Source: an uncultured Gammaproteobacteria bacterium (lineage in GTDB: Bacteria; Patescibacteriota; Patescibacteriia; UBA11705; DATKZF01). From it: a stretch of 64,000 nt of DNA. Location: contig CAYPKD010000004.1 of assembly GCA_964411255.1 (NCBI GenBank), positions 94,037 to 158,036 on the forward strand. Reading direction: 5' to 3'. Position 1 is the stretch's first letter. Each line of letters begins with the position of its first letter. Below the pieces are notes generated by a model. It was not told the origin of the DNA. It saw nothing but the letters and a program-made list of their open reading frames with translations, and did not search any database. A program made the translations under genes and the position numbers. Shown here piece by piece: positions 7,249-63,205 of this stretch.

Positions 7249-9339
7249 ATGATAAAAAATCTGACATTTCTTTTTATAAATCTTGCACTTACAATATTTG
7301 TTTGTATAAATTTTTTTGTCGAACAAAACTTTTATATACACATAATTGCATCAGGCATTTTTTTAATTTTAAATACTTATTTATTTGCCTCAATTTTTTC
7401 AAAATATAATTTTAAATCATGGATTTTATCTATTTTACTTATAATAGGCATCATAATTATCCCAGGATCAATAATCTATTATTTTTATCAGATTAATTCA
7501 TATGTGATAAGTATTCTGGTCGTATTAATCTTTGGATTATCAACATTTTTTTGGTATAAAAGCGATACACCATTATTAAAGCCACATATTCCAAAATTAA
7601 AACTGACTTTTCTTGAATTCTTAACCATGGTCAGCTATTTAATTTCTATTGGCTTTATTCTTTTTATTTTAATTAAATCCAGATCAGATATTGCTGTCAG
7701 AACGCCCTGGGCTTTAATTGACAAAAGAATATTTGTCCTTTATTTTACTTCAACCTTTATTCTGATTGTTTTATTTTGGCAGACAAAATTAAATTCATTT
7801 TGGCAAAAAACATTTTTATCAATGCATTTTTTTGTTTCTTTTTGTGTTGCATTTATTGTTTACAAATTAGGATTTGGCTATGATCCTTTTATTCATCAAA
7901 AAACAGTAGAAATAATCAGCCAAGATGGTTTTATCTCCCCAAAACCACTATATTATCTTGGGCAATATACACTCGAAGTATTGGTGCACAAATTATTTTT
8001 AATTCCAATTGACTGGATTGATAGATTATTTGTCCCTGTTTTAGCAGCAATCTCTCTGCCAAGCATAATTATTTTTTCCATAAAAAAAATAAATCCAATT
8101 GCTGTGTTAATCTTTTTAGCTATCCCTTATTCATTTTTAGCATTTACCACCCCTCAGAATCTAACTTTTTTCTTTAGTCTTTTATTAATATTTCTGGCTT
8201 ATCGATTTTTAATTTATAAAGACATTTCCTGGATTTGGCTTGGTCTATTATCCTTAATTATACTGACCATTCACCCATTAACCGGCCTTCCAATGCTTTT
8301 ATTTTCCCTGGCCTTGCTTATTTTTAGATATAAAGCCAGTAACCTAATAAGCAAAATATCAAAAACCCTTTATTTAATATTGTCTGCAATAATTATTCCT
8401 TTTGCATTTGTCTTATTAAATTTAACACGCGGCTATCAAATCAATTTCCGATTTGATTGGAATGTAATCACTTCAGATTTATCAAGTTTTTTTCAAAACA
8501 TGTTTTATTTAAAAAATAATTTTAGACAGATTTATGATCTGATATACTTTTATGGATTAAATTTAAAATTCTTTATAATTATTTCGATTATTGTATTTTT
8601 AATTTTATTTTGGAAAAAAGGCAGCCAGATGTTTGGTCATAAAATAAAAACTCAGCCCAAACATCTGGCTGCCATCTTTCTTGGGTCTTTTATTATCACT
8701 GGAATAAATTATTTAATCTTAAAAAACTTCTTTGTCTTTGAAGAATTAATTTATTATGAAAGATCTGATTATGCATTACGACTAATAACTTTAATGTTTT
8801 TATTTTTAATCCCTCTGATTCTAATATTTATTTCAAAACTTATTGATTTTAAAAATAAAAGAAAAATAATTGTAATTTCAATTTTTATCCTCTTGAGTTT
8901 AATAATTTCAGCCAGCTTTTACCTCAGCTATCCCCGCTATGACAATATTCAGGCCAGCCGGGCATTAAATGTAAGTAAATATGATTTTAATGCTGTGCGA
9001 TATATTGCAGATAATGAAAATCTACCATACATAGTGCTCGCCAATCAAAATACTTCTGTGGCTGCAATAAAGCTATACGGATTTGAACCTGTTTATAATA
9101 ATTATTTTTACTATCCAATTCCAACAGGTGATGAATTATATCAAATTTATCTAAAAATGGTTAATGATCAACCAAGAATTGAATACATTAATGAAGCTAA
9201 ACAATTGACCAGAATCAGCACGGTTTATTTTGTTCTGCCAAAATACTGGGATAATTTCAATCAAATTAAGTCAGCAGCCGAGCAGATTGCAATTGAACAT
9301 CATTCTATTGATGAGCAAATTGAAATATTTAAATTTTAG
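7249..9339 (+). CDS. large polytopic membrane protein (possible GT-C-type glycosyltransferase / DUF2079-like)
   Basis: 696 aa, ~14 TM segments, extremely AT-rich coding region. Confidence 0.45.
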   Translation: MIKNLTFLFINLALTIFVCINFFVEQNFYIHIIASGIFLILNTYLFASIFSKYNFKSWILSILLIIGIIIIPGSIIYYFYQINSYVISILVVLIFGLSTFFWYKSDTPLLKPHIPKLKLTFLEFLTMVSYLISIGFILFILIKSRSDIAVRTPWALIDKRIFVLYFTSTFILIVLFWQTKLNSFWQKTFLSMHFFVSFCVAFIVYKLGFGYDPFIHQKTVEIISQDGFISPKPLYYLGQYTLEVLVHKLFLIPIDWIDRLFVPVLAAISLPSIIIFSIKKINPIAVLIFLAIPYSFLAFTTPQNLTFFFSLLLIFLAYRFLIYKDISWIWLGLLSLIILTIHPLTGLPMLLFSLALLIFRYKASNLISKISKTLYLILSAIIIPFAFVLLNLTRGYQINFRFDWNVITSDLSSFFQNMFYLKNNFRQIYDLIYFYGLNLKFFIIISIIVFLILFWKKGSQMFGHKIKTQPKHLAAIFLGSFIITGINYLILKNFFVFEELIYYERSDYALRLITLMFLFLIPLILIFISKLIDFKNKRKIIVISIFILLSLIISASFYLSYPRYDNIQASRALNVSKYDFNAVRYIADNENLPYIVLANQNTSVAAIKLYGFEPVYNNYFYYPIPTGDELYQIYLKMVNDQPRIEYINEAKQLTRISTVYFVLPKYWDNFNQIKSAAEQIAIEHHSIDEQIEIFKF

Positions 9340-11965: not shown

Positions 11966-12571
11966 TTAAAAGGCACAGCTTGTTTTCACCCGAAACGTAT
12001 GACCTTTGTTTTCCTTCTGAACTCCAAAATAATACTGAACATCAAAGGACCATGGCGTATCTGGCTTGTTCAGTCCAAAGTGTGGACCAAACATAACACC
12101 TTTTTCAATCTGTTCACCATGAACGCCAAGCTTCAGCCATTTTATAGGATGATAGTCTAAGGCGTAAAAGCCATAGTAATCATAAACATCTTTAAAATGG
12201 TTGGCCAAAAAATCTCCTTCGAAAAACATCGTGAACTGGCCCTCAAAAAATGAAAATCCAATCCACAGACTGGCATCAAATGCAGTCGTATCTGCCCAAT
12301 TGATTCCAGTACCAATCAACGGAGATACCCAAAACCAATCAGTAATCACCCACATTGGGCCAATATAGGCAAAATACATGTGAATACCATTTTCTGGTGA
12401 TACAAATGCAATTGAATTGCCAAATAGCGACAATGTCTGACCTGCAGCCAAATTATCACCTAATTCGACTGAGCTCTCGACAGAAAACATCAATTCAGCG
12501 CCCCTCCAGCTATACTCAGCAAGAGCAGTTTGCGAAACGCACAGCAATACAATAAAAATCAGCTTTTTCAT
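11966..12571 (-). CDS. secreted hypothetical protein (signal peptide, aromatic-rich)
   Basis: N-terminal 'MKKLIFIVLLCVSQTALA'; W/Y/F-rich, possibly beta-rich; no family recognised. Confidence 0.45.
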   Translation of the reverse strand: MKKLIFIVLLCVSQTALAEYSWRGAELMFSVESSVELGDNLAAGQTLSLFGNSIAFVSPENGIHMYFAYIGPMWVITDWFWVSPLIGTGINWADTTAFDASLWIGFSFFEGQFTMFFEGDFLANHFKDVYDYYGFYALDYHPIKWLKLGVHGEQIEKGVMFGPHFGLNKPDTPWSFDVQYYFGVQKENKGHTFRVKTSCAF

Positions 12572-12797
12572 GTTTTTTCCTCCAGGAAATTGTAAGAACA
12601 GTCAACATCATATTATAACAAACATAAATAAATATGTCAACAGCATTATTCGTAATTATTTGTAATAATAACAAAAAAAATTTGTAATATACTAAAAAAC
12701 AGCATGTTATGACATACTGTTAATTTGTAATATTGTCTAAAAGCTCATTCATTAATATATGAATCTCAAAGTTTGAAGCAACATGACTGGCCCCAAA

Positions 12798-18508: not shown

Positions 18509-19423
18509 TTATAATGAATTGCCAAAAGGAATATTATCCAGGGTTGATTGGTCAACAAAAGTTAAATTTGCCCAGCTATATCCTAATGAAAATAATTTTT
18601 CTGCAGATCGGATGTGATGTTTGGTTCCTTTTTGGATTAAAAATACGCGTGTATCAGTATAACTTCTGAGTACTTTCCCTTCATATGACTTGCTGCCTGA
18701 AGCAGGATGCGAATTTATGTCTTTAAGGCTTGTTCCATGCTGAATTTCTTCATCTTTTGAATATCCATCTTTATCTGCATCACTCCAGCCAGAATGCCTG
18801 ATGTCTTTATGCGTAAATATTGCTATCTGATTACCTCTTTGCTGATCTCCATAATTCAAATCATGGATGGCTTCCATCATTTCATCATAGCCGTAACGCC
18901 AGTCATGCCCATGAATTGTGCCTGGCTCATTAGTTATAAATTGCCTTCGGTTATCATCATAACCTTTTATTATTACAACATGATAAATTGGACCAGCACC
19001 TTGAAAATTTGGATTGTGTAACCCTCTTCCATACACTGGCACTAAAACCGGCTGATTATTATCAATTTCATTTTTTATAGCAATCAAGCTCGGGTTTTTT
19101 TTTGTATCTGCTTCAAATGGAAAGTAATTATTTATAATATGAGTCATCTGATGAGCATTGGTATCTTTATTATATCCCCAAAGTTTATTTTCAATATTAA
19201 CAATGTCTAAAATCTCACTTTTGGGATTATTAATATGTGTATTGCCTTTATAATAATTATCTAGCATAACAGTTGCAGATTCCTCGCAGGCTTCATCAAA
19301 CGGCGCATACCAGCCGTCTGGCGCCTGAACAGTAAAAGGCACGTTTATATTCTTAATATTACCTGCAAATACTGGCAAAGCCATTAAAAAAAATATTATA
19401 CTAAAAATTGTAATTTTTTTCAT
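18509..19423 (-). CDS. secreted papain-like (C39-like domain) cysteine peptidase, putative
   Basis: Signal peptide; 'QAPDGWYAPFDEACEE' (Gln/Cys) and 'HVVIIKGYDD' (His) arranged as in Peptidase_C39_2 / BtrH-like domains. Confidence 0.45.
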   Translation of the reverse strand: MKKITIFSIIFFLMALPVFAGNIKNINVPFTVQAPDGWYAPFDEACEESATVMLDNYYKGNTHINNPKSEILDIVNIENKLWGYNKDTNAHQMTHIINNYFPFEADTKKNPSLIAIKNEIDNNQPVLVPVYGRGLHNPNFQGAGPIYHVVIIKGYDDNRRQFITNEPGTIHGHDWRYGYDEMMEAIHDLNYGDQQRGNQIAIFTHKDIRHSGWSDADKDGYSKDEEIQHGTSLKDINSHPASGSKSYEGKVLRSYTDTRVFLIQKGTKHHIRSAEKLFSLGYSWANLTFVDQSTLDNIPFGNSL

Positions 19424-19435
19424 AAAAATTAGACT

Positions 19436-20059
19436 TTAAATACTTGATTCTATATTTTCCTCCACTTGTTTAATTAATACTTCAATTTCCTTATCTTTTA
19501 CAATATATTGCAAAAGCCTGGTTACTTCTTCAACTGCATTTGTATTTGCCTTTTCCAATAATTCCTGGGTGTTAGCTGCCTGCTCAGCTTGTTTTGTTAG
19601 CTCAGTCAAAGCCTGATTATAGCCATCATCACTATCAAGTACTCTTTTTAAAATACCCTGTTTATTTTTTACATCAATCGGACCTACCAATCTGGTATTA
19701 AATATTTCTGCAGGAGCCAATGAAACAACCACTTTTGTTGATTTTACTTCAATATCTTCTTCTGCAAGCTTTTGCAAATCCACGCCTAAATTCACTTCCA
19801 TATTTCCCCTGGCTTCAATGCTCTGACCAAACAGAAGATCTTTCCAAGTGCCCTCTTTATTTTCTATCAATATCGGTTCATTAAAAACATAAGTCTGCGT
19901 TACTAAAAAACCGCGCGCATGAAGAGTTGTTAAAATGACATCAGCAGTCACTTTTCGCTCTGACTTTTCTGGCTTTGCAATGGACCAGCCAAGGTACATT
20001 GCGCCTCCAATGATTGCAATAACAGCGATAATTATTAAAATTACTTTTAATTTTTTCAT
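19436..20059 (-). CDS. membrane-anchored DUF4230-like protein
   Basis: N-terminal TM helix, then a 'NEGTWKDLLFG' region typical of DUF4230; overlaps neighbours by 4 nt (operon). Confidence 0.4.
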   Translation of the reverse strand: MKKLKVILIIIAVIAIIGGAMYLGWSIAKPEKSERKVTADVILTTLHARGFLVTQTYVFNEPILIENKEGTWKDLLFGQSIEARGNMEVNLGVDLQKLAEEDIEVKSTKVVVSLAPAEIFNTRLVGPIDVKNKQGILKRVLDSDDGYNQALTELTKQAEQAANTQELLEKANTNAVEEVTRLLQYIVKDKEIEVLIKQVEENIESSI

Positions 20060-20580
20060 ACTTTATCCTTTATTTGATAAATATATATTGGAATTTGATC
20101 TTTTGCTGGTTTATCTATTAAAATAGGCTGCCAGTCAGCAATTTTAAAAGAATATGAAATAATCTTTGCACCAGGCTTCAATTCTTTTTGAAGCTTTTTA
20201 GCCACTCTCAATTTCAAACTGATCGGATATCCAAAAATGTAAACAACATCTGCATCGGTTAAATCAACTTTAAAAAAATTTCTATACAATATTTGGCAAT
20301 TTTTACAGCCTGAGAATATTTGCTTAATTTTTGCCCAAAAATAAATTGGCAGAGCCATCTCTATACCAAATGCTTTAGCTTTTGAATTCTTTCCAATAAA
20401 AAATACTACTTTACCATTTCCGCATCCCAAATCATAAAAATTTTGACCGGGTTTTAGGTTTGCCAATTTTAATATCCTGGACAAATCTTTTGTTCTGGTC
20501 GGAACAAAAGGAGCGCTAGACCAGCTGGCAATGGCAATTGTAAGCAGCAAAACAACCAAAACTAAAGCTGCATAAATCAT
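20056..20580 (-). CDS. membrane-anchored class I SAM-dependent methyltransferase
   Basis: Motif I 'YDLGCGNGKVV'; N-terminal TM helix. Confidence 0.6.
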   Translation of the reverse strand: MIYAALVLVVLLLTIAIASWSSAPFVPTRTKDLSRILKLANLKPGQNFYDLGCGNGKVVFFIGKNSKAKAFGIEMALPIYFWAKIKQIFSGCKNCQILYRNFFKVDLTDADVVYIFGYPISLKLRVAKKLQKELKPGAKIISYSFKIADWQPILIDKPAKDQIPIYIYQIKDKV

Positions 20581-27810: not shown

Positions 27811-28017
27811 ATTTGTTTAGCAATTCCTGGTAAAATTGAATCAATTGATGAAAAAAACCAAACCGCACTGGTTAATTTTGATAATTTGAAAAAAAATATC
27901 AATATCAGCTTAATTAAACCAAAAATTGATGATTTTGTTATTGTACATGCGGGTTTTGCTATTGAGATAATTGATAAAAATGAGGCAATTGAAATAAAAA
28001 GGTTATTGAAACGTTAA
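27811..28017 (+). CDS. hypC: HypC/HupF-family hydrogenase maturation chaperone, lacking an ATG start (ATT at 27811 precedes the essential Cys codon)
   Basis: Translation (I)CLAIPGKIESIDEKNQTALVNFDNL...FVIVHAGFAIEIIDKNEAIEIKRLLKR matches the HypC N-terminal 'MCLAIPxKI' signature and beta-barrel length. No in-frame ATG, GTG or TTG between the upstream stop (27736) and the Cys codon. Confidence 0.6.
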   Translation: MCLAIPGKIESIDEKNQTALVNFDNLKKNINISLIKPKIDDFVIVHAGFAIEIIDKNEAIEIKRLLKR

Positions 28018-28020
28018 ATA

Positions 28021-28050
28021 TGTGTTATGTTGCGTTAATCAATGTGTTAT
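28021..28050. repeat. left inverted repeat flanking four-helix-bundle cassette 1
   Basis: tgtgttatgttgcgttaatcaatgtgtta pairs with the reverse complement of 28427..28460 (ggggttatggttgcgttaagtgggtgtta). Confidence 0.6.
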
Positions 28051-28065
28051 ATTACGTAATTAAAT

Positions 28066-28374
28066 ATGAAAATAAAAAATATAGAAGATCTTGATGCTTG
28101 GAAGGAAGCAATACTCTTTTGTGAAATGATCTATAAGTTAGCAAACAAACTGCCAATTAAGCATCTACGTGCAAGTGCTAGAGGAGTTGCTGCCAACATT
28201 GCCGAAAGATTTGGTAGATATTTCTATAAAGAGAATCTACGTTTTTATGGTATTGCAAAAGGTTGCTTAAATGAAGTTAAGAGTGATTTAAATATCTGTC
28301 TGCGAATAGAATATATAACTCAAGAAAATTTAATGAGTATATTTTTCAAGCAGATAAGGTTGAATCAATACTAA
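28066..28374 (+). CDS. four-helix-bundle protein (23S rRNA IVS protein / Avd family)
   Basis: 'LDAWKEAILFCEMIYKLANKLP...LRASARGVAANIAERFGRYF...FYGIAKGCLNEVKSDLNIC' follows the TIGR02436/PF05635 family pattern. Confidence 0.7.
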   Translation: MKIKNIEDLDAWKEAILFCEMIYKLANKLPIKHLRASARGVAANIAERFGRYFYKENLRFYGIAKGCLNEVKSDLNICLRIEYITQENLMSIFFKQIRLNQY

Positions 28375-28426
28375 ATGGATTAATAAACAGCGTATTAAAA
28401 AGACTTAAAAATATTGCCAAATAACG

Positions 28427-28460
28427 CATACTAACACCCACTTAACGCAACCATAACCCC
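28427..28460. repeat. right inverted repeat flanking four-helix-bundle cassette 1
   Basis: Reverse complement aligns with 28021..28050 at ~23 of 29 positions with one indel. Confidence 0.6.
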
Positions 28461-28467
28461 ATGTAAC

Positions 28468-29496
28468 ATGTATAACACCATAGATACAATCAATACACTG
28501 ACTTGCAAAATAAATCATCCTGTTAAATTGATGGAACTTTGCGGCACGCATTCGCAAACCGTGGCCAAATACAATTTAAAAAGCTTGCTGCCGCAAAATA
28601 TTGAATTAATCTCCGGCCCTGGCTGCCCTATTTGCGTCACTGATCAAACTGATATTGATATTGTAATTAGCCTGGCAGAAAATAATATTCCAATTGCCAT
28701 TTATGGTGATGCTTTAACATTGCCAGGCACAAATTCCAGTCTTGAAAAGTTAAAGCAGCAAGGTAAAAAAATCCATATTGTTTATTCAACTCAAGATGCA
28801 TTAAATATTCAAAAACAAGAACCAGACTTGATTTTCTTTGGAATTGGATTTGAGACAACCACTCCAATGACAGCTTGGGCACTCAAGCAAGGTCTTAAGG
28901 TTTATTCAGCACATAAACTTTTTCCACCAGCAATGGCAGCGCTTTTACAAAATCCTGATATCCAAATCGACGGATTTATTGATCCGGGTCATGTTTCTGC
29001 AATAATTGGAGAAAAGCCTTATAAACAATTTAATGTTCCTCAAGTTATATCCGGATTTGAGCCTGAGGATGTATTAATTTCAATTCAAATGCTGCTGGAA
29101 ATGATTTTGAAAAATAAAAATGAACTTAAAAACCAATACACACGAGTTGTAAAGCCAGATGGAAACATTGAAGCCAAAAAAATCATTGAAGAAGTTTTTG
29201 AAATTTCAGATGCCAAATGGCGCGGACTTGGCAACATTCCAAACTCCGGATTAAAAATAAAAACTAAATTTCAAAATCAGGATGCGGAATATATTCATAA
29301 AGATTTAATTGAAAAAATAAAACAAAACATTGAACCAAAACAAAATAAATGCATTTGTGGTAAAATACTGCAAGGATTGGCAAAACCTGGTGATTGCCCT
29401 CTATTTGCCAAGTCTTGCACACCGGAAAATCCTCAGGGAGCGTGCATGGTTTCAGTTGAAGGGAATTGCCAGATTGAGTACAGGTTTAATAACTAA
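28468..29496 (+). CDS. hypD: hydrogenase maturation factor HypD
   Basis: 'CGTHSQ', 'GPGCPICV', 'FFGIGFETTTP', 'PGHVSAIIG', and C-terminal 'CICG...CPLF...C...GACM' Fe-S cysteine motifs typical of HypD. Confidence 0.85.
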   Translation: MYNTIDTINTLTCKINHPVKLMELCGTHSQTVAKYNLKSLLPQNIELISGPGCPICVTDQTDIDIVISLAENNIPIAIYGDALTLPGTNSSLEKLKQQGKKIHIVYSTQDALNIQKQEPDLIFFGIGFETTTPMTAWALKQGLKVYSAHKLFPPAMAALLQNPDIQIDGFIDPGHVSAIIGEKPYKQFNVPQVISGFEPEDVLISIQMLLEMILKNKNELKNQYTRVVKPDGNIEAKKIIEEVFEISDAKWRGLGNIPNSGLKIKTKFQNQDAEYIHKDLIEKIKQNIEPKQNKCICGKILQGLAKPGDCPLFAKSCTPENPQGACMVSVEGNCQIEYRFNN

Positions 29497-29501
29497 TTTG
29501 G

Positions 29502-29540
29502 GGGAGGCTGGAAGCTGGGTGTAGGTTTAGAAGCTAGAAT
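29502..29540. repeat. left inverted repeat flanking four-helix-bundle cassette 2
   Basis: gggaggctggaagctgggtgtaggtttagaagctaga pairs with the reverse complement of 30035..30071 (gggatgctggaagctaggtatgggtgtggatgctaga), ~30 of 37 identical; an extra inner copy ctccagcttccagcc sits at 29968..29982. Confidence 0.7.
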
Positions 29541-29547
29541 ATACAAT

Positions 29548-29958
29548 ATGAACAATAACAAACAACCAATTAAAAGCTTTGATGACTTATGGGTTTATAC
29601 TGAAAGTTATAATGCCTCAATTATTATCTTCTCAGAAATTCTTCCAAAATTACCAGCTGAAGAAAAATTCGATTTAAAGGATCAAATACGAAGGGCCTAC
29701 AAAGCAGTTCCACGATTGATTGCCGAGGGATATGCTAAAAGACATCAAAAGGCAGGGTTTCAAAAATACTTGGACGATGCTAACGCAGAATCCAATGAAA
29801 TGATTGTTTGCTTACGGCAATGCAGGGACTTGTATAGTGAATTTATTGATAAAGATATATGTAAAAAACTTATAGAAATCTACACAAAATGCAGCAAAGG
29901 ACTCTGCAGCCTTTCCAAAACCTGGATGAGTTTTTCTAAACTTCCCCCAAAAAAATAA
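29548..29958 (+). CDS. four-helix-bundle protein (23S rRNA IVS / Avd family), second copy
   Basis: 'DQIRRAYKAVPRLIAEGYAKRH' matches the family core (RAA-SIP-NIAEG-GR); 136 aa. Confidence 0.65.
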   Translation: MNNNKQPIKSFDDLWVYTESYNASIIIFSEILPKLPAEEKFDLKDQIRRAYKAVPRLIAEGYAKRHQKAGFQKYLDDANAESNEMIVCLRQCRDLYSEFIDKDICKKLIEIYTKCSKGLCSLSKTWMSFSKLPPKK

Positions 29959-30034
29959 TATTTCTAACTCCAGCTTCCAGCCTTCGTCAAGACTTCGGCC
30001 GGCAGGCCAAATCCACAATTCGCTTCTAAAAAAA

Positions 30035-30071
30035 TCTAGCATCCACACCCATACCTAGCTTCCAGCATCCC
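30035..30071. repeat. right inverted repeat flanking four-helix-bundle cassette 2
   Basis: See 29502..29540. Confidence 0.7.
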
Positions 30072-30097: not shown

Positions 30098-31066
30098 ATG
30101 ATTGAATTAGAACACGGTGGCGGTGGTTATAAAAACAACCAACTAATAAAAGAACTCCGCCAAATCATTAATTTAAAAACAGACTGGACAAACATTGAAG
30201 ATGATGCAGCAATTTATGATCTTGGTGATAAAAAATTGGTTTTTACAACTGATGCTTTTATAGTTGATCCGATTTTCTTTCCAGGAGGAGATATTGGAAA
30301 AATTGCAGTTTGCGGGACCATTAATGATCTTGTTGTGATGGGAACAAAGCCATTGGGATTATCTTTAAGTATTGTAATCGAAGAAGGTTTTGCTAAAAAA
30401 GATCTTTTCAAAATAGCTGAATCCATTGATAAAATTTCAAAACAAACTAATATTCCAATTGTAACTGGTGATACAAAAGTAATTGATAAAGGAAAACTTG
30501 ATAAAATTGAAATAACCACAGCTGGAGTTGGCGTAACTGAAAAAGTAATTGACAATGGTGGTGCAAAAATTGGCGACAATATTATAACTTCCGGAGATTT
30601 AGGCGAGCATGGCGTTACTTTACTCGCCTATCGATTTGATTATCAAACTGATATAAAAAGCGACTGCAAAGCTTTATGGGAAGAATTTCAGGCAGTTGGG
30701 CCTTTATTAAACGCAGCCAAAGATCCAACTCGCGGCGGAGTGGCAGCAAATATAAATGAAATTGCAGAAAAGTCAAAAGTAAAAATTGTTTTAGACGAAA
30801 ATAAACTACCGTATAAAAAAGACGTAATTGCTTTAACGGAACTTTTAGGTATTGAATTATTTAATTTACCATCAGAAGGCCGCTTTATTGCAGCAGTTAG
30901 TGAGGAGAACACTGATGAAGCATTAAAAAAACTTCAGGAATTTAATCCTGAAGCTAAAGTGATAGGAAAATGCGTTCAAGGTGATGGCGTATTTTTGAAG
31001 ACCAAACTTGGTTCTGAGAGAAGGATTGAGGAGCCAAAGGGTAAATTGATACCGAGGATTTGCTAA
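30098..31066 (+). CDS. hypE: hydrogenase maturation factor HypE (carbamoyl dehydratase, AIR-synthase-related)
   Basis: N-terminus 'IELEHGGGGYKN', 'FTTDAFIVDPIFFPGGDIGKIAVCGTINDLVVMG', and C-terminal 'PRIC' ending with the thiocyanate-carrying Cys. Confidence 0.85.
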   Translation: MIELEHGGGGYKNNQLIKELRQIINLKTDWTNIEDDAAIYDLGDKKLVFTTDAFIVDPIFFPGGDIGKIAVCGTINDLVVMGTKPLGLSLSIVIEEGFAKKDLFKIAESIDKISKQTNIPIVTGDTKVIDKGKLDKIEITTAGVGVTEKVIDNGGAKIGDNIITSGDLGEHGVTLLAYRFDYQTDIKSDCKALWEEFQAVGPLLNAAKDPTRGGVAANINEIAEKSKVKIVLDENKLPYKKDVIALTELLGIELFNLPSEGRFIAAVSEENTDEALKKLQEFNPEAKVIGKCVQGDGVFLKTKLGSERRIEEPKGKLIPRIC

Positions 31067-35143: not shown

Positions 35144-36337
35144 CTAGAACTTTTCATTTCTCAAGCAATACATCATCTGCCCCAAACTCAATCCATAATC
35201 TCCCCTCTCAATATTTTTAGACATAATTACTCCATTGTTTTTCGCAACTTGACTCATAATCTTATTATTTGCCATTCCTCCTCCAAAATATATTGGTAAA
35301 TTTGAATCAGCTTTTTTCGCAATATTAATTAGCCCTTCAATAACATATTTTTGAACAGTAGCTGCCAGTCTTCCCTTATCCTTATCCAAATTATCCAAAA
35401 GCCATTCAAAAAGATAAGAGATATTTAACTCATATTGTTTTTCAATTTCTCTGTTTCTCTGTTTCTCTGTCTTTGTGTTTTTCTGCTCTTCTGTTTCTCT
35501 GTCTTTGTGTTTTTCTGTTATCCTAGGCTCTAAATCAAACGGATCTGCTGATTTCTTCTCCAGTAAATCAACGGGCTCATGTTTATAATTTCTTTCATTT
35601 TTACAAAGGCCAAGTAAAACTGAGGCTGCATCCAGTATTCTTCCAGTACTACTAGTTTCTACTGAATTAAATTTTTGTTCGTACATTTTTACAAATAAAT
35701 CAAACTCCTCCTTTTTAAAAAACTTTTCAAAAATCGACCGTATTTCAGCCGGCTTTTTTATTTTTAAAAGTATTGAAAGAAGCATTCTGGCCGGCTCTTT
35801 TATTGATAAATCCGCACCGCATAATAATTGATTTTCCAAATGCCCAATTCTTTTTATTTTATCTTTGCTTTTTTCTTTTTGATTTTGACTGATAAGGAAC
35901 ACTTCACCTCCCCAAATCTTTCCATCAAGACCATACCCTGTACCGTCTGCTGCTATACCTATAAACTTGGAGAAGCTGAGTGTGGGTATAGAAGCTAGAA
36001 TAGTGTAATCAAATAATACTGAATAAACATGCGCAATGTGATGTTGTACTTTTTCAAGCTTTGCGTCATATTTATCAGCTAATTCTTCTCCCAATTTTGA
36101 GGTTTTATATTCTGGATGCAGATCAACACATATTATATCTGGAACAAAACTATTTTTTTCCAAAAATTCAAATATAATCTTTTTATAATTTTCAAAATTA
36201 TTTTCTTCAATCAAATCACCTAGATCTTCTTGGTAATAAATCTTTCCTTTATTATAAACACAAAAATTCCCAGCTGACTCAGGTCCTAAGGCTAGGATTT
36301 TTTGATTCTTATTAATCGTCACGTCAAACCCTTTCAT
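35144..36337 (-). CDS. HypF-like carbamoyltransferase, Kae1/TsaD-like domain only (no acylphosphatase, Zn-finger or YrdC domains)
   Basis: 'VQHHIAHVYSV' (the HHxAH metal motif of the HypF Kae1-like domain), 'IGIAADGTGYG', 'GGGMANNKIM...GDYGLSLGQMMY'. Contains a charged low-complexity insert encoded by a tandem DNA repeat. Confidence 0.6.
   Translation of the reverse strand: MKGFDVTINKNQKILALGPESAGNFCVYNKGKIYYQEDLGDLIEENNFENYKKIIFEFLEKNSFVPDIICVDLHPEYKTSKLGEELADKYDAKLEKVQHHIAHVYSVLFDYTILASIPTLSFSKFIGIAADGTGYGLDGKIWGGEVFLISQNQKEKSKDKIKRIGHLENQLLCGADLSIKEPARMLLSILLKIKKPAEIRSIFEKFFKKEEFDLFVKMYEQKFNSVETSSTGRILDAASVLLGLCKNERNYKHEPVDLLEKKSADPFDLEPRITEKHKDRETEEQKNTKTEKQRNREIEKQYELNISYLFEWLLDNLDKDKGRLAATVQKYVIEGLINIAKKADSNLPIYFGGGMANNKIMSQVAKNNGVIMSKNIERGDYGLSLGQMMYCLRNEKF
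35450..35520. repeat. imperfect ~35-bp tandem repeat x2 inside the hypF-like CDS
   Basis: ttctctgtttctctgtctttgtgtttttctg repeated; encodes 'TEKHKDRETEEQKNTKTEKQRNRE'. Confidence 0.7.
35972..36003. repeat. solo copy of the cassette-2 inverted-repeat motif inside the hypF-like CDS
   Basis: gaagctgagtgtgggtatagaagctagaata versus 29511..29541 gaagctgggtgtaggtttagaagctagaata (28 of 31 identical). Confidence 0.6.
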
Positions 36338-36395: not shown

Positions 36396-37244
36396 TTATT
36401 TTGTGTTTGTTCTTACTGGAAAATAAACGCTAAATGTCGTTCCATAACGGTATATACTATCAACGTCAATCCAGCCTTTATACTTTCTTACCACCTTATC
36501 AACAATTGTCAGTCCAATGCCAGTACCCTTTCTTAATTTTGTCGTATAATACGGATCAAAAATTCTATCAACATTCTCACCCATAATTCCTATTCCCGTG
36601 TCTTCAATTGTAATTAAAACATATCTTTCTGGATTCTCTTGGTCAGGCAGAAAACCAGGCTTATTCTCAGCAATTACTATTTTTGTCATTACCTTAATAA
36701 CATTAGGACGATCATAAGCCCCCAGGGCGTCTCCTTCTTGAATCGCATCATATGCATTTATAAATAGATTCAGCAACATTTGCTGTATATCTACTGGATC
36801 AATCAAAATAGGTGGCAAATCTTCTTGAAAGCTATATTCGAACACAGCCTCAGCATGCAGGCCTTGAATAAGCGCCATTATCTCTTCAATAATTCTATTA
36901 ATATTTACTGGAATCATTGCAGCCGCAGATGGTTTTCCAAAATCCTGAAGTTGTTTTACCAGCGCTACAGTTTGATGATGCGCACATAAAGCTAACTCAC
37001 GCAGGGGGCGATCTTCATTATTATCAGTCTTTAAATCCTCGCTGTCCAGATAAAAACCAACCACAGCAAGTAAATTATTCAGCTGATGAATTACCTGGCT
37101 TGTTAGTTGGCCTAGCCCTTGCAATTGCATGGCTTTGCGCTGTCTTTGTCTGTATGGTTTTTTTTCTAAAGTTTTAAAGGCCTCAGGAGGCTGAGTTACC
37201 TCATGCCTAAATTTATTTTGATCCAATTTATCTTTATCTCCCAC
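36396..37244 (-). CDS. soluble sensor histidine kinase (HisKA + HATPase_c), no TM or sensor domain recognised
   Basis: H-box 'VIHQLNNLLAVV'; 'DTGIGIMGENVDRIFDPYYTTK...GTGIGLTIV' N/G1/F/G2 boxes. Confidence 0.75.
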   Translation of the reverse strand: MGDKDKLDQNKFRHEVTQPPEAFKTLEKKPYRQRQRKAMQLQGLGQLTSQVIHQLNNLLAVVGFYLDSEDLKTDNNEDRPLRELALCAHHQTVALVKQLQDFGKPSAAAMIPVNINRIIEEIMALIQGLHAEAVFEYSFQEDLPPILIDPVDIQQMLLNLFINAYDAIQEGDALGAYDRPNVIKVMTKIVIAENKPGFLPDQENPERYVLITIEDTGIGIMGENVDRIFDPYYTTKLRKGTGIGLTIVDKVVRKYKGWIDVDSIYRYGTTFSVYFPVRTNTK

Positions 37245-37365: not shown

Positions 37366-38196
37366 TCATTGATAACAAATAGTTGGAAAAAATATTTCAA
37401 ACATAGATCCACATCCGATTCGACTTAAAACCTTTATAAAACCTCCATATTTTCCAACAATGCTCCTGACTATATGAAGACCTATTCCAGTGCCCTCTTC
37501 TTTAGTAGTAAAATAGGGTACAAAAATTTTATTAAAATTTTCTGGGTCTATGCCGCAGCCATTATCACTGATTGACATTCTAACATAATTTCCCGGATGT
37601 ATTCCTTGTAAACTATATTTTTTCGTATCACTAATCACAAATTCTTTAACACTAATACCTACTTCCCAAATGCTATTTGGATTATTACTTTCTGCTGCAT
37701 CCCATATTGCTTCTCTGGCATTTAATATTAAACACATTATCACTTGCTGTAAATCTATAGGATCAATCATAATTTTTGTTGTTTCATCCAAATCCAAAGC
37801 CAATTCAAAACATCTATCAATTAAGCCCCACTTAATAACTTTTGCAATCGAATCATTAATATCGATTGGCTCAGGCTCTGGCAGAGACAATCGCCCGAAT
37901 TCTAAAATTCTTCTGCATAATCGATGTGACTGCTGGCATATTTCTTCAGCTTCTGTTAAATATTCTTCCTTTCTTTGTTCAGAAGCTTGATTAGCAGCCA
38001 TCTTCAAATTCATATCAATAACCACCAATTGACTTCGAAGCTGATGAGCAATCCTAACAGTCGATTCACCAATTGTCTGCATGATAAGTAACTGTCTTTC
38101 CTGCATTTCAATACTTTCATCTGATTCAGGCGGCAAAATTTGTTCATCATTACCTATTACAATACTACACCTTTGTCTTTCACCTTTTTCTTGCAT
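37366..38196 (-). CDS. soluble sensor histidine kinase, second tandem copy
   Basis: H-box 'RIAHQLRSQLVVI'; 'DNGCGIDPENFNKIFVPYFTTKEEGTGIGLHIV'. Confidence 0.75.
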   Translation of the reverse strand: MQEKGERQRCSIVIGNDEQILPPESDESIEMQERQLLIMQTIGESTVRIAHQLRSQLVVIDMNLKMAANQASEQRKEEYLTEAEEICQQSHRLCRRILEFGRLSLPEPEPIDINDSIAKVIKWGLIDRCFELALDLDETTKIMIDPIDLQQVIMCLILNAREAIWDAAESNNPNSIWEVGISVKEFVISDTKKYSLQGIHPGNYVRMSISDNGCGIDPENFNKIFVPYFTTKEEGTGIGLHIVRSIVGKYGGFIKVLSRIGCGSMFEIFFPTICYQ

Positions 38197-59622: not shown

Positions 59623-60381
59623 TTACTCTATTGAAATTGAAAAAATTGCTTGTGTATATCCAGTATCTTTTTCCTTATCTATTCCAAATGAAATCTTTTT
59701 CCCAGAGTCAAAATTTATATCTGTTTTAATCAAGCCTCTTTTTGCACTTAATTCGGTTGAAAATGATTTAATAATACCAAGTGTCTCTTTTTCTAAAATA
59801 TCATCTGGCTCAATGTTTGATATAATATACCAATTAAATTCTTCATGTTGTTCGGTGATACGATGTATTGAACCGACTAATAATCCTTTAATTCCTTCTA
59901 CTTCCAATATAATTTCCCAAGATGCTGGCAACCATGGTCTTCCTTTCTTGTCTTTCTTTCTTAATTCCTTTAGATCAAACTCTATAGCTTCTAAATAGTC
60001 TTTATTTAAACTTAATAATAACTCATAGGTAGCTTCATCACTTAACTTCACTTCTGAAACATTTTTTTTACGTATGCGTTCCTGATTAGTATCCTCCAGA
60101 AGATCAATTGGCTCTGTATTGAAGGCTGGTTCTGCACTTTCTTGTCTTTTTCTTTTCTTTTCAATTTTATCCTTTATCTTCATTAACTCATTCTTATAAT
60201 CCGTATAAAAATCCAAAGCCTCTTTCAACTTCCCAGCTTTTTCAGCAGCCACAGCCTTATCCATGATCTTTCCCAGAAATTCCTTTTCTTCATCAGTTAA
60301 AGGCACACGCTTAACCTCACTCCGCCGCGGGCGGGCCATTTGGAGTTGGGATTCGAGAGATTGGGGTTTTTCTGACTTCAT
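59623..60381 (-). CDS. paralog-family protein 1 (shared N-terminal helical domain, unique C-terminus)
   Basis: N-terminus 'PQSLESQLQMARPRRSEVKRVPLTDEEKEFLGKIMDKAVAAEKAGKLKEALDFYTDYKNEL' shared with three neighbours. Confidence 0.55.
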   Translation of the reverse strand: MKSEKPQSLESQLQMARPRRSEVKRVPLTDEEKEFLGKIMDKAVAAEKAGKLKEALDFYTDYKNELMKIKDKIEKKRKRQESAEPAFNTEPIDLLEDTNQERIRKKNVSEVKLSDEATYELLLSLNKDYLEAIEFDLKELRKKDKKGRPWLPASWEIILEVEGIKGLLVGSIHRITEQHEEFNWYIISNIEPDDILEKETLGIIKSFSTELSAKRGLIKTDINFDSGKKISFGIDKEKDTGYTQAIFSISIE

Positions 60382-60393
60382 ATCTTTTACATG

Positions 60394-61086
60394 CTATTTC
60401 ATTATATCACCTTTTATTTTTCCCTCTTCTTTCAGTCTTTCTGCTTTTTCAACTAATTTTTTAGTACAGCCCTCAATTATAAGATCGTTGCCAACATATA
60501 AATCATCTGGCAAATCTTTAATTGATGAATTATTTAATATTAGATCACCATCAATGCGAGTATTCTCAGGTAAAGAATCCATTATTGCTCCGTTCATATT
60601 AAGTGTACCAAAAACTCTAAGACCTGAACCTTTCCACTTTTTTACAACAGTATTTTTTAATATTAATGAATTACTAACTAACATGTTTGCAGGAAATTCA
60701 TCAATAATTTTCCCTGTTAAATTTAACATTTGTTTTGTTTCCAGCGCTGGAAGCTTTGATAAATCAAAAACAATCTCTACAAAATTTTCCTCTGTGAATC
60801 CAATAGCAGCAATCCATTCTTCTAGTTTTTCCCTTGTCCAAACAATTTCTTTCTCTTTTTCCTTTATCTTTAACAACTCATTCTTATACTCAGTATAAAA
60901 CCCTAAAGCCTCAGCCAATTCCCCAGCTTTTTCCGCAGCCACAGCCTTATCCATAATCTTTCCTAAAAATTCCTTTTCTTCAGCAGTCAGCGGCACACGC
61001 TTAACATCACTCCGCCGCGGGCGGGCCATTTGAAGTTGGGATTCGAGAGATTGAGGTTGTTCTTTTTGCATAGAGCTATTAGACAT
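60394..61086 (-). CDS. paralog-family protein 2 (shared N-terminal domain; C-terminus related to paralog 3)
   Basis: 'QPQSLESQLQMARPRRSDVKRVPLTAEEKEFLGKIMDKAVAAEKAGELAEAL'; C-terminal '...GCTKKLVEKAERLKEEGKIKG' similar to paralog 3; the true start may be the internal Met 15 codons downstream. Confidence 0.55.
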   Translation of the reverse strand: MSNSSMQKEQPQSLESQLQMARPRRSDVKRVPLTAEEKEFLGKIMDKAVAAEKAGELAEALGFYTEYKNELLKIKEKEKEIVWTREKLEEWIAAIGFTEENFVEIVFDLSKLPALETKQMLNLTGKIIDEFPANMLVSNSLILKNTVVKKWKGSGLRVFGTLNMNGAIMDSLPENTRIDGDLILNNSSIKDLPDDLYVGNDLIIEGCTKKLVEKAERLKEEGKIKGDIMK

Positions 61087-61109
61087 TAATCATTTGTAAT
61101 TGAGAATAA

Positions 61110-61823
61110 CTATGAAGGAATGATTACTTTTCCCTTAATTTTTCCTTCTTTTGCTAACTTTTGCGCTTTTTCTTTCACTTTATCAGAACAACCACCAACC
61201 CAAAAATTATGCCCGACATATATATTATCTGGCAAATTTTCAATAGCTGACCTTGCTATGTCAAAACTCCCTGTAACATGCGTATTTTCAGGTATGTGAG
61301 ATAGTTTTGCATTTTTCATATCACATGAACCTTTTACAGTTAATCCCGGGCCATTCCATTTTTTAACTTCCGCATCATTTAATAAAAGATGTCCATTAAC
61401 AGTTAAATTTGGCGGGAATTCGTCAATTACTTTACCTCTCAAACGCAGATAGCCTATTGTTTCTAATCGAGGGAATTTGGTTAAATCAAAAGTCTGTGCT
61501 GTATATTCTGAAATTGAAAAATCAGGAAATTCATAAACCTTTTCCACCCACTCTTCAAGCCTACCTAGAGTCCATATTTTTTTTTCATCCTCTTTTATTT
61601 TTTTATCCTTCTCTTCTTTAATCTTTAACAATTCATTTTTATAGTCAGTATATAAATCTAATGCTTCTTGCAGCTTCCCTGCCTTTTCCGCAGCCACTGC
61701 CTTATCCATAATATTTCCCAGAAATTCCTTTTCTTCATCAGTTAAAGGCACACGCTTAATCTCAGCACGTTTTGGTTTGGCCATTTTTAATTGACTTTCT
61801 AGTGATTGAGGTTGTTCTGGCAT
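61110..61823 (-). CDS. paralog-family protein 3
   Basis: Start set to 'MPEQPQSLESQLKMAKPKRAEIKRVPLTDEEKEFLGNIMDKAVAAEKAGKLQEAL'; the track start 61844 would overlap the upstream gene. Confidence 0.55.
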   Translation of the reverse strand: MPEQPQSLESQLKMAKPKRAEIKRVPLTDEEKEFLGNIMDKAVAAEKAGKLQEALDLYTDYKNELLKIKEEKDKKIKEDEKKIWTLGRLEEWVEKVYEFPDFSISEYTAQTFDLTKFPRLETIGYLRLRGKVIDEFPPNLTVNGHLLLNDAEVKKWNGPGLTVKGSCDMKNAKLSHIPENTHVTGSFDIARSAIENLPDNIYVGHNFWVGGCSDKVKEKAQKLAKEGKIKGKVIIPS

Positions 61824-61840
61824 ATATTTTAGGTATAAAA

Positions 61841-63205
61841 TCAAATCGTATTTATTCTCTTTACATAATTGTTTCCCTCCTTAGCAATTATATATATTTT
61901 ATCCTCATTTATTAAACCAAAATGATAAATTTCATCATAATCTTTACCAACTTTTTCTCCCTTTTCATTTACTACAAACCATTTGCCATCTTTTTTTGCT
62001 GCAAAAACAATTTTACCTCCAATATCTCGTGGATCTTTAACCTCATCATAATCGTGTCCAACTTTCTCCCCTGCTTCATTTACTACAAACTTTTTGCCAT
62101 CTTTTTTTGCTGAAAAAGTAATTTTACCTCCAATATCTTGTACCTGCCCAACATTATCATAATCTTGTCCAACTTTTTCTCCTTTTTCATTTATTGTAAA
62201 CCATTTACCATCTTTTTTTGCTGAAAAAGCAATTTTACCTCCAATATCTTGTGGATCTTTAACCTCATCATAATCTTGTCCGACTTTTTCTCCTTTTTCA
62301 TTCATAACAAACTGTTTATTATCCTTGATTGCTACAAAAGCAATTTTTCCTCCAATATCCTGTGGGTCCCAAATTTTATCATAATCTTGTTCAGTTTCTT
62401 CACCCTTTTCGTTTACTATAAACCATTTGCCATCTTTTTTTGCTCGAAAAACAATTTTACCTCCAATATCTTGTGCCTGCCCAATATGATCATAATCTTG
62501 TCCAACTTTTTCTCCTTTTTCATTTATTATAAACCATTTGCTACCTTTTTTTGCAGAAAAAGCAAGCTTACCACTAATATTTTTTAAAAAACTAATATGA
62601 TCATAATCTTGTCCAACTTTTTCTCCTTTTTCATTAACTACAAAGCATTTGTCATCTTTTTTTGCTCGAAAAACAATTTTTCCTCCAATTTCATGAGGAT
62701 ACCCAACATCATCATAATCGTGTCCAACTTTTTCTCCTTTTTCATTTATTATAAACTCTTTGTTGTTTTTTTCAGCATCAAAAGCAATCCTGCCTCCGAT
62801 ACTTTCAGGATAGCCAACATCATCATATTCATCTCCAACTTTTTCTCCCTTTTCATTTACTACAAACCATTTGCCATCTTTTTTTGCTGCAAAAGCAATT
62901 TTTCCTCCAATATCTTGAGGCTTTCGAACTCCATCATATTTCTTTATATCTATTAAAGCCACTATTAGTCCTTCATTATTTTCCTTTTCTTCTCTTTTTT
63001 TAATCTTTAATAATTCATTCTTATAATTCGAATAAAAATCCAAAGCCTCTTCTAATCTTCCAGCCTTTTCCGCAGCCACTGCCTTATCCATAATATTTCC
63101 CAGAAATTCCTTTTCTTCATCAGTTAAAGGCACACGCTTAATCTCAGCACGTTTTGGTTTGGCCATTTTTAATTGACTTTCTAGTGATTGAGGTTGTTCT
63201 GGCAT
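61841..63205 (-). CDS. paralog-family protein 4: shared N-terminal domain plus 11 tandem WG-like beta repeats
   Basis: N-terminus identical in 55 of 58 residues to paralog 3 (near-identical DNA); C-terminal '(I)GGKIxFxAKKDGKWFVVNEKGEKVGxDYDxV' repeated 11 times (WG/KWG-repeat-like). Confidence 0.6.
   Translation of the reverse strand: MPEQPQSLESQLKMAKPKRAEIKRVPLTDEEKEFLGNIMDKAVAAEKAGRLEEALDFYSNYKNELLKIKKREEKENNEGLIVALIDIKKYDGVRKPQDIGGKIAFAAKKDGKWFVVNEKGEKVGDEYDDVGYPESIGGRIAFDAEKNNKEFIINEKGEKVGHDYDDVGYPHEIGGKIVFRAKKDDKCFVVNEKGEKVGQDYDHISFLKNISGKLAFSAKKGSKWFIINEKGEKVGQDYDHIGQAQDIGGKIVFRAKKDGKWFIVNEKGEETEQDYDKIWDPQDIGGKIAFVAIKDNKQFVMNEKGEKVGQDYDEVKDPQDIGGKIAFSAKKDGKWFTINEKGEKVGQDYDNVGQVQDIGGKITFSAKKDGKKFVVNEAGEKVGHDYDEVKDPRDIGGKIVFAAKKDGKWFVVNEKGEKVGKDYDEIYHFGLINEDKIYIIAKEGNNYVKRINTI
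61960..62930. repeat. ~99-bp coding tandem repeat x11 (WG-like repeats)
   Basis: Periodic 'ttttacctccaatatc...tttttctcc...' units; generates the spurious F-rich antisense ORFs 61922..62956. Confidence 0.8.

Follow-up and report, generated by a model that had tools for sequence, protein, structure and literature searches.

The gene at 35144..36337 on the minus strand of the window (the whole stretch of 64,000 nucleotides analyzed here) has an ATG start and encodes a 397-residue protein that represents a genuine Kae1-like domain of the HypF type rather than a paralogue of TsaD. The assignment as a Kae1-like-domain-only or "HypF1-type" HypF comes from Pfam, TIGR00143, and an AlphaFold model. We consider it probable (about 0.68) that the protein is a functional carbamoyltransferase acting in the ordinary CN-ligand pathway and that its client is an unlinked [NiFe] hydrogenase encoded elsewhere in the genome. 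A distant hydrogenase is favored because the hyp genes are under strong purifying selection, their motifs are intact, and hyp and hydrogenase genes are frequently dispersed in related genomes. From comparison with its homologues, the short Kae1-only protein is the standard form of HypF in Patescibacteria and not peculiar to this genome.

Architecture, Fold, and Active Site of the Short HypF

Pfam identifies two domains in the 397-residue protein, HypF_C at residues 10–110 (E 1e-22) and HypF_C_2 at residues 127–387 (E 3e-42), and no others. Only positions 387–738 of the 741 in the NCBIfam profile TIGR00143 (hypF) are covered, and the score of 222.7 bits is below the curated cutoff of 466.1, which applies to the whole protein. 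Because this match is limited to the C-terminal half of the profile, the acylphosphatase, Zn-finger, and YrdC domains are absent. Neither an N-terminal acylphosphatase domain nor a YrdC/Sua5-like domain was matched by Pfam or NCBIfam, and the two CxxC Zn-finger motifs (zf-HYPF) were not found in the sequence. The same matches bear out the proposal of an earlier note on this DNA that the open reading frame contains only the Kae1-like part of HypF and retains the HHxAH motif. The motif is present as VQHHIAHV (HHIAH), and its two histidines, H99 and H103, are invariant in 70 homologues together with D131 and D380. The four residues, an HxxxH motif plus two Asp, align with the corresponding positions of E. 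coli HypF; we take the E. coli metal/nucleotide site residues to be H475, H479, D502, and D727.

The AlphaFold model has a pLDDT of 92.9, and Foldseek aligns it to the HypF structures 3VTI, 3VTH, 3TSQ, and 4G9I with TM scores of 0.77–0.81, as compared with 0.43–0.49 for TsaD, Kae1, and Qri7 and 0.44 for VtdB (7XB6). These values bear on the alternative that the protein is a paralogue of TsaD/Kae1 (t6A synthesis) or one of the O-carbamoyltransferases typified by NodU, CmcH, and TobZ, an idea made somewhat plausible by the ASKHA/Kae1 fold and HxxxH metal motif that it has in common with those families. The alternative is rejected, with a negligible residual probability, on the TM scores and on the Pfam result, in which HypF_C and HypF_C_2 are the only matches and neither TsaD (PF00814) nor Carbam_trans_N/C (PF02543, PF16861) is detected; the constant linkage of the gene to hypCDE, and to hydrogenases in relatives, also stands against it. 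The domain search suggested in the earlier note, for HypF_C and Carbam_trans, thus matched the former and not the latter, and its concern that the gene might be a different Kae1/TsaD paralogue is answered by the HypF-type fold.

The protein also contains a charged loop that is encoded by a degenerate repeat array of ~10.5 units at 35436..35519 (minus strand), characterized with TRF, a repeat search, and alignment of ortholog DNA. TRF gives an 8-nt unit in 10.5 copies with 73% matches, in agreement with the second repeat search; the unit is TGTTTTTC on the plus strand and roughly GAGAAACA on the coding strand. On the coding strand, the array includes a higher-order tandem duplication of 32 nt, in which CAGAAAAACACAAAGACAGAGAAACAGA.. 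occurs twice. It encodes a K/E/T/Q/R-rich loop at residues about 272–300. Relative to two orthologues, those of loci L010 and L009 (80% and 64% identity by BLASTP), the gene has a species-specific insertion of 48 nt (16 residues) at 35441..35488 (minus strand), which encodes ..TEKHKDRETEEQKNTKTEKQRNREIEKQ.. and is composed of six 8-nt units, equivalent to the 32-nt tandem duplication plus two units, so that the reading frame is kept. The origin of the K/E/T-rich insert in a tandem DNA repeat, as the earlier note had it, is therefore sustained by the TRF array and by the insertion relative to the orthologues; the proposed period of ~35 bp corresponds to the 32-nt duplication, which is itself built of 8-nt units.

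Residues 281–300 of the loop have pLDDT values of 59–65 in the model, and the alignment with homologues indicates that the loop carrying the insert is hypervariable across the whole family. An identical protein is present on ten contigs; the three places shown are from three different samples, and variation in repeat copy number across strains, which the earlier note had raised, is not seen among them. On these alignments, the insert is a lineage-specific expansion and not a feature of the family. It would have arisen by slippage in a surface loop that is variable, would have no specific role, and is probably inconsequential.

The hyp Genes and Their Surroundings

The hypC, hypD, and hypE genes are located at 27.8–31.1 kb in the window, 4–8 kb from hypF; the product of each exceeds its NCBIfam equivalog or subfamily cutoff and retains its key motifs. 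The first of these, hypC (27811..28017, plus strand, 68 residues), scores 60.4 bits with TIGR00074 (cutoff 48) and, when read from the Cys codon, covers positions 2–64 of the 65 in Pfam HupF_HypC (E 1e-20). Its start is ATT, directly before the essential Cys2 (I/M-CLAIPG...); no ATG, GTG, or TTG start before Cys2 was found in the DNA, and the ATT start is common to locus L010. A search with the pattern M/V/L-C-L-x-x-P missed the gene because of this start, and it was seen in the DNA itself. HypC keeps Cys2 and also His46 in the sequence VHAGFA, which we take to be equivalent to His51 of E. coli HypC. The hypD gene (28468..29496, plus strand, 342 residues; TIGR00075, 418.9 bits, cutoff 192.8) encodes the motifs CGTH, GPGCPICV, GFETT, and PGHVS and a C-terminal Cys cluster, all conserved with respect to Cupriavidus necator HypD. 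The hypE gene (30098..31066, plus strand, 322 residues; TIGR02124, 346.2 bits, cutoff 251.6) ends in PRIC, which includes the acceptor cysteine. Two cassettes on the plus strand separate these genes. The first (28001..28458), between hypC and hypD, contains a four-helix-bundle gene (23S_rRNA_IVP, PF05635/TIGR02436) at 28066–28374 within 37-nt inverted repeats, and the second (29502..30071), between hypD and hypE, contains a second four-helix-bundle gene at 29548–29958, also within 37-nt inverted repeats (81% complementary).

None of the open reading frames in the window encodes a hydrogenase subunit (PF00374 or PF01058), HypA, HypB, a YrdC/Sua5 protein, or an acylphosphatase. The gene inventory of the earlier note, with hypC, hypD, and hypE present but hypA, hypB, and [NiFe] subunits missing, is accordingly correct for the window. 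The possibility it left open, of hydrogenase genes just outside, is not realized in the adjoining sequence: no hydrogenase subunit, hypA, hypB, or YrdC gene is present in the 9.5 kb that precedes the start (L004) or in the 5.2 kb that follows the end (L137). In total, a contiguous 78.8 kb that includes the hyp genes (record 257,672–336,460 of a 364,661-bp contig) contains no hydrogenase subunit, hypA, or hypB gene. The end of the window encodes proteins at 61841–63205 and 63261–63962, and the 5.2 kb that follows was reached through a DUF2090 gene with an internal start.

Seven genomes of the sub-lineage to which this DNA belongs have the gene order iPGM-x-hypC-hypD-hypE...hypF in common and no nearby hydrogenase; hydrogenase, hypA, and NuoEFG-like genes are all missing from their flanks. 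In the six genomes other than that of the window, the available flanks (3.7–10 kb) are likewise free of hydrogenase subunit, hypA, and hypB genes. A scan of metagenome contigs added one new sub-lineage locus of usable length, L094 (8 kb), which has no hydrogenase, and a 1-kb fragment, L102. Sub-lineage HypE is 57–68% identical to all outgroups, and the sub-lineage is thus equidistant from all other CPR. Among five sub-lineage genomes, dN/dS is 0.08–0.21 for HypF, 0.02–0.07 for HypE, and 0.05–0.12 for HypD, as compared with 0.05–0.13 for the glycolytic enzyme iPGM in the same five genomes, and the dN values of HypE and HypD are lower than that of iPGM. The sub-lineage hypCDEF genes are under strong purifying selection and therefore do something.

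Short HypF in Patescibacteria and in Known Systems

The best 120 homologues of the short HypF are all Kae1-only proteins of 358–447 residues with HypF_C and HypF_C_2, and those with a named source are almost all from Patescibacteria MAGs. The description of the protein in the earlier note as a reduced HypF is therefore right with respect to its domains but not as an oddity of this genome; it is one member of a large family already annotated automatically as "hydrogenase maturation protein HypF/hypF1". Thirty loci from GTDB species representatives have at least 8 kb of flanking sequence on both sides. In 22 of these, a large subunit gene lies within 10 kb of the short hypF (median about 1.7 kb), and the loci combine a group-3b-like [NiFe] hydrogenase, hypA, and hypCDE at about 1–3 kb from hypF; the other eight have no nearby large subunit. 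In L006 and L007, the small subunit, the large subunit, and hypA lie to one side of hypF, and hypE, hypD, and hypC lie to the other. In L083 and L053, hypC and hypD do not adjoin hypF. In related Patescibacteria, the large and small subunits encoded beside the short hypF have their best matches in the alpha and delta subunits of sulfhydrogenase, one of the group 3b cytosolic [NiFe] hydrogenases known from Pyrococcus and Thermococcus; this window has no such genes. The last residue of the CPR large subunits is the histidine of DPCxxCxxH, with no C-terminal extension, and their scores fall well short of the NCBIfam equivalog cutoffs. In the Patescibacterial hydrogenase clusters examined, no HypF other than the short form was seen. 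In tblastn searches of limited sensitivity, with single C. necator sequences as queries (the N-terminal half of HypF2, HypB2, and HoxW), no YrdC-like, acylphosphatase, HypB, or endopeptidase genes were detected near about 90 related loci. A literature search for hypF, hypD, or hypE in CPR/Patescibacteria returned nothing relevant.

A studied protein with the same architecture is HypF1 of C. necator H16 (Ralstonia eutropha), encoded on the megaplasmid pHG1 (WP_011153939.1; L011:10034–11218), which has 394 residues and the Pfam domains HypF_C and HypF_C_2 and is 27% identical to the window HypF (E 9e-33). Both consist of the Kae1-like domain only, at about 395 residues, and are encoded with hypC, hypD, and hypE. 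HypF1 has been described as having only one of the three domains, as a protein that "likely requires carbamoyl adenylate", and as inactive under anaerobic conditions (PMC9100943); it was also inactive in E. coli complementation (PMC5350229). Unlike the Patescibacterial clusters, C. necator has a full-length HypF2 (807 residues) on the same plasmid, as well as HypB and an endopeptidase. The full-length HypFs nearest to the CPR protein are 40–44% identical to it, closer than the 27% of C. necator HypF1, suggesting that the CPR protein may have been truncated independently. The canonical four-domain HypFs of E. coli (3TSP/3TSQ), Caldanaerobacter (3VTH/3VTI), and Thermococcus kodakarensis (4G9I) share with the short HypF the Kae1-like fold, the HHxAH...D...D site, and the partnership with HypE, but they also have the acylphosphatase, Zn-finger, and YrdC-like domains and hence the first two of three active sites.

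Probable Client and Proposed Carbamoyl-AMP Supply

Two other accounts of the sub-lineage genes have been considered. In one, they are what remains of a hydrogenase cluster that was lost and are now decaying, with the ATT start in hypC and the hypF repeat expansion as early signs of pseudogenization. The missing ATG, GTG, or TTG before Cys2, the slippage-prone repeat, and the invasion of the operon by selfish-looking four-helix-bundle cassettes can all be read in this way. However, seven genomes whose divergence exceeds a dS of 1 all keep the four open reading frames intact, the ATT start is found in two species with 83% conservation of the open reading frame downstream, and the 48-nt expansion is in frame and in a loop that varies family-wide. 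This account is rejected on the dN/dS values of 0.02–0.21, and we regard it as very improbable.

In the other account, which is unlikely but better placed than decay, the [NiFe] hydrogenase is gone from the sub-lineage, and HypC, HypD, HypE, and the short HypF persist because they serve some other client or chemistry; they might supply an Fe-CN/CO unit, cyanide, or thiocyanate to a different metalloprotein or S-carbamoylate a different target. Seven genomes with hyp genes and no hydrogenase in their flanks, together with the 78.8 kb that takes in the window, are consistent with such a loss, and the hyp genes are strongly selected all the same. Set against this, the sequence in view amounts to 20–80 kb of each roughly 1-Mb genome, and hyp genes are commonly unlinked from those for hydrogenase. 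Furthermore, HypC retains Cys2 and His46, HypE retains PRIC, all of the HypD motifs are exactly as in hydrogenase-linked relatives, and comparison of the loci reveals no conserved candidate client gene beside the sub-lineage cluster. To our knowledge, HypCDEF have no client other than hydrogenase, which also counts against this account.

If, as we prefer, the short HypF serves an unlinked hydrogenase by the ordinary pathway, carbamoyl-adenylate would bind at its His/His/Asp/Asp metal site, and the carbamoyl group would be moved onto the C-terminal cysteine of HypE (..PRIC). HypE and ATP would then dehydrate the carbamoyl group to thiocyanate, and CN would be handed to the iron on the HypC-HypD scaffold to give the Fe(CN)2CO unit of the [NiFe] hydrogenase. 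Carbamoyl-AMP is normally produced from carbamoyl phosphate and ATP by the acylphosphatase and YrdC-like domains of HypF; since the short HypF has neither, its carbamoyl-AMP must come from elsewhere. By analogy, TsaC/Sua5 or another YrdC-family enzyme that stands alone could provide it in trans. In t6A synthesis, threonylcarbamoyl-AMP (TC-AMP) passes from TsaC to TsaD, and the TsaC/Sua5 and TsaD/Kae1 pair, in which a stand-alone Kae1-family transferase likewise receives an acyl-adenylate from a separate YrdC-family enzyme, could therefore be a working model for this supply, although its substrate is threonylcarbamoyl-AMP, its acceptor is A37 of tRNA, and the TM score is only about 0.45.

A single short hypF gene is ordinary, and it is the wider Patescibacterial pattern that is of some value. 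Should the sub-lineage genomes truly lack a hydrogenase, their Hyp system would have a second use, the first outside hydrogenase maturation. In the Patescibacterial clusters examined, the HypF seen consists of just one of the three catalytic modules, the last, and no HypB or maturation protease is detected nearby. Patescibacteria as a whole may mature [NiFe] hydrogenase by a minimal kit that dispenses with the N-terminal domains of HypF, with HypB, and with the endopeptidase and that receives carbamoyl-AMP in trans, and such organisms would be natural test cases for the route of carbamoyl-adenylate to the Kae1-like site.

Domain Architecture and Active Site of the Short HypF

The hypF gene at 35144–36337 on the minus strand of the window is an intact ORF with an ATG start that encodes 397 residues. 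Pfam identifies HypF_C (residues 10–110, E = 1e-22) and HypF_C_2 (residues 127–387, E = 3e-42) and nothing else, and TIGR00143, the 741-position NCBIfam HypF equivalog, aligns at positions 387 to 738 only, with a score of 222.7 bits that is well below its cutoff of 466.1 bits. Because these are the only matches, the protein consists solely of HypF's Kae1-like C-terminal half, as an earlier note made from the sequence alone had stated; the HHxAH motif named there is present as HHIAH. An AlphaFold model built on 70 homologs is confident (pLDDT 92.9, pTM 0.92). Its top PDB matches are HypF Kae1-like domains (3VTI, 3VTH, 3TSQ, 3TSP, and 4G9I) with query TM-scores of 0.77–0.81, as compared with only 0.43–0.49 for TsaD, Kae1, and Qri7 and only 0.44 for the O-carbamoyltransferase VtdB. 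This rules out the different Kae1/TsaD paralog that the note had allowed for, and there is next to no chance that the protein is something other than a HypF. His99, His103, Asp131, and Asp380 are unchanged in 70 family members and align with the matching residues of Escherichia coli HypF, namely His475, His479, Asp502, and Asp727, which form the site for metal and nucleotide.

In Patescibacteria, this short HypF is the norm. A homology search with the window protein gave 1401 matches, the best 120 of which all have 358–447 residues and both HypF_C domains (with an additional precomputed PF02543 match in three of them); the source-named entries among these 120 are nearly all Patescibacteria/CPR metagenome-assembled genomes. 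When 1.84 billion cluster representatives were searched exhaustively (4804 matches), the top 21 are all short (281–504 residues), and full-length HypFs (720–790 residues) appear only at 229 bits and below, with 40–44% identity. The architecture is already known from a described precedent, HypF1 of the Cupriavidus necator H16 megaplasmid, a protein of 394 residues encoded between hypB1 and hypC1 that carries precisely the pair of Pfam domains found in the window HypF, to which it is 27% identical (E = 9e-33). C. necator, however, also has a full-length HypF2 (807 residues) near its soluble hydrogenase genes, and HypF1 was reported to be inactive in E. coli (PMC5350229).

The charged insert is encoded by an array at 35436–35519 with an 8-nt unit (Tandem Repeats Finder, 10.5 copies, 73% matches), and a second repeat search gave the identical register. 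The coding strand of the array holds a 32-nt tandem duplication; the two copies encode TEKHKDRETEE and QKNTKTEKQRN, in different frames because 32 is not divisible by three. This 32-nt duplication corresponds to the tandem repeat of ~35 bp in the earlier note. Relative to the orthologs in two related loci, L010 (80% protein identity, BLASTP) and L009 (64%), the window gene has exactly 48 extra nucleotides (35441–35488), or six units, so that the reading frame is preserved. No loop of the family varies more in length than the one that holds the insert, and residues 281–300 have the lowest model confidence (pLDDT 59–65). The identical protein occurs on ten contigs, the three listed places coming from three samples, and therefore no copy-number polymorphism is seen. 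We read the insert as a neutral slippage product. The earlier observation is thus confirmed and its interpretation supported in part: the Kae1-only HypF stands, but its shortness is normal for Patescibacteria and its repeat is incidental.

The hyp Genes of the Window and Its Sub-lineage

The hypC (start at 27811–27813), hypD (28468–29496), and hypE (30098–31066, C terminus PRIC) genes all score above their NCBIfam cutoffs. In hypC, an ATT codon precedes that of the essential Cys2, with no ATG, GTG, or TTG start, and for this reason gene callers give a fragment of 43–49 residues or no call; from the Cys codon onward, the gene spans positions 2–64 of the 65-position Pfam model. The ATT start is common to the window and the 80%-identical species (L010), and it occurs independently in another locus (L031). 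Among 41 hypC genes located by motif in the fetched loci, a total that includes the window's contig four times, 34 start with ATG, 6 with ATT, and 1 with GTG.

All other window ORFs were annotated, either from precomputed Pfam tables for the source contig (JGI 3300029258, Ga0309772_1000015, 364,661 bp), of which the window is the reverse of 262,913–326,912, or by a direct scan of those that remained. As the earlier note had observed, hypC, hypD, and hypE are accompanied by no hydrogenase subunit, HypA, or HypB in any window ORF, and YrdC/Sua5 and acylphosphatase are likewise absent. Nor are any of these genes present in the 9.5 kb before the window or the 5.2 kb past its end, which excludes a standard adjacent hydrogenase arrangement just outside; the search covered the window and these flanks, with ~286 kb of the contig outside it.

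The window belongs to a tight clade of seven genomes (with L010/L093, L094, L009, L008, L138, and L005/L012, GCA_049319825.1). Identities to the window within the clade are 59–80% (BLASTP) or 64–84% (global alignments) for HypF, 86–92% for HypE, and 78–87% for HypD, as compared with 39–50, 57–68, and 50–61%, respectively, for all other CPR. Where flanks suffice, the order is iPGM, a small ORF, hypC, hypD, hypE, variable genes, and hypF on the opposite strand, and no hydrogenase, hypA, or NuoEFG-like genes occur in the visible flanks of the seven genomes. Pairwise dN/dS is 0.08–0.21 for hypF, 0.02–0.07 for hypE, 0.05–0.12 for hypD, and 0.05–0.13 for the neighboring iPGM, many dS values being saturated and window-L010 being the most reliable pair; absolute dN is lower for hypE and hypD than for iPGM. 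HypD retains CGTH, GPGCPICV, GFETT, PGHVS, and the C-terminal cysteines, as in the hydrogenase-linked L006 and C. necator, and HypC retains Cys2 and the VHAGFA histidine. Judged by substitution patterns, the hyp genes are not decaying, and with ratios of 0.02–0.21 across hypF, hypE, and hypD it is very improbable that they are relics.

Two four-helix-bundle gene cassettes (23S_rRNA_IVP, PF05635/TIGR02436) lie between hypC and hypD (28001–28458) and between hypD and hypE (29502–30071), framed by 37-nt imperfect inverted repeats that are 73 and 81% complementary, respectively. The repeats resemble the stems found at rRNA intervening sequences, yet they stand within a protein operon. Relatives (L005, L010, and L138) have 0–2 cassettes at differing positions, which suggests mobile stem-plus-ORF elements that are possibly RNase III processing sites. 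Two short cytoplasmic histidine kinases (36396–37244 and 37366–38196, minus strand; HisKA/HATPase_c only), in which no sensor or transmembrane domain was seen, are encoded immediately upstream of hypF in the same orientation, after a gap of 58 nt; a HATPase_c gene also precedes hypF in L005, L009, and L010 and not in L008 or L138. At 59623–63205 (minus strand), four tandem paralogs share a near-identical N terminus (..PQSLESQL.MA.P.R...KRVPLT.EEKEFLG.IMDKAVAAEKAG..) and differ in their C-terminal domains; one has about nine repeats of a ~33-residue unit, GGKI.F.AKKDGKWF..NEKGEKVG.DYD, and none has a convincing Pfam match.

Hydrogenase Neighborhoods and the Probable Client of the Pathway

Gene neighborhoods settle what the short-HypF family does. 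In the related loci L006 and L007, whose HypFs are 47–49% identical to that of the window, genes for the hydrogenase small and large subunits and a hypA-like gene lie to one side of hypF, and hypE, hypD, and hypC lie to the other, with NuoE/F/G-like genes beyond them in L006; both clusters are set among glycolytic genes. Eighty loci from GTDB species representatives were screened by tblastn with L006, L007, and window proteins. Thirty of them extend 8 kb or more to either side; of these, 22 have a large subunit within 10 kb of hypF (median ~1.7 kb), five (L039, L055, L067, L080, and L089) have hypCDE and NuoE/F/G-like (diaphorase) genes but neither hydrogenase subunit over that distance, and three have hypCDE only. 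The relatives' large and small subunits best match the α and δ subunits of Pyrococcus/Thermococcus sulfhydrogenase (group 3b). In most of the group-3b-like large subunits listed (L006, L007, L013, and ~45 other loci), among them the types adjoining hypF in L006 and L013, the DPCxxCxxH histidine is the last residue and any C-terminal extension is lacking; a short tail occurs in one divergent type (L035, L060, and L075). Searches with C. necator queries, which are of limited sensitivity, detected no HypB, endopeptidase, or HypF N-terminal module in ~90 loci. The Patescibacterial clusters point to a minimal maturation kit of HypA, HypC, HypD, HypE, and the short HypF. In L007 (bacterium BMS3Abin15), PDDEXK_3, Y1 transposase-like, and GIY-YIG genes at 8741–9145, 12105–12773, and 19175–20495 are interspersed among the hydrogenase and hyp genes; such clusters seem to gather small genes of selfish appearance.

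We predict, with a probability of about 0.8, that the window protein functions as a HypF1-type carbamoyltransferase of the CN-ligand pathway. Because the pathway is intact and under selection, it must have a client, and the only known one is a [NiFe] hydrogenase. The full explanation, in which the window genome has an unlinked hydrogenase, is probable; roughly one in four related genomes has its hyp and hydrogenase genes apart, and the search could see no more than part of the window genome. That the hydrogenase was lost and the Hyp proteins repurposed would be remarkable if true, but this reading rests on absence within limited sequence and is unlikely. As for substrate, a Kae1-only HypF may receive carbamoyl-AMP from a separate protein, by analogy with t6A synthesis, where TsaC hands its product over to TsaD; a candidate gene for such a donor was not found near any of the clusters.
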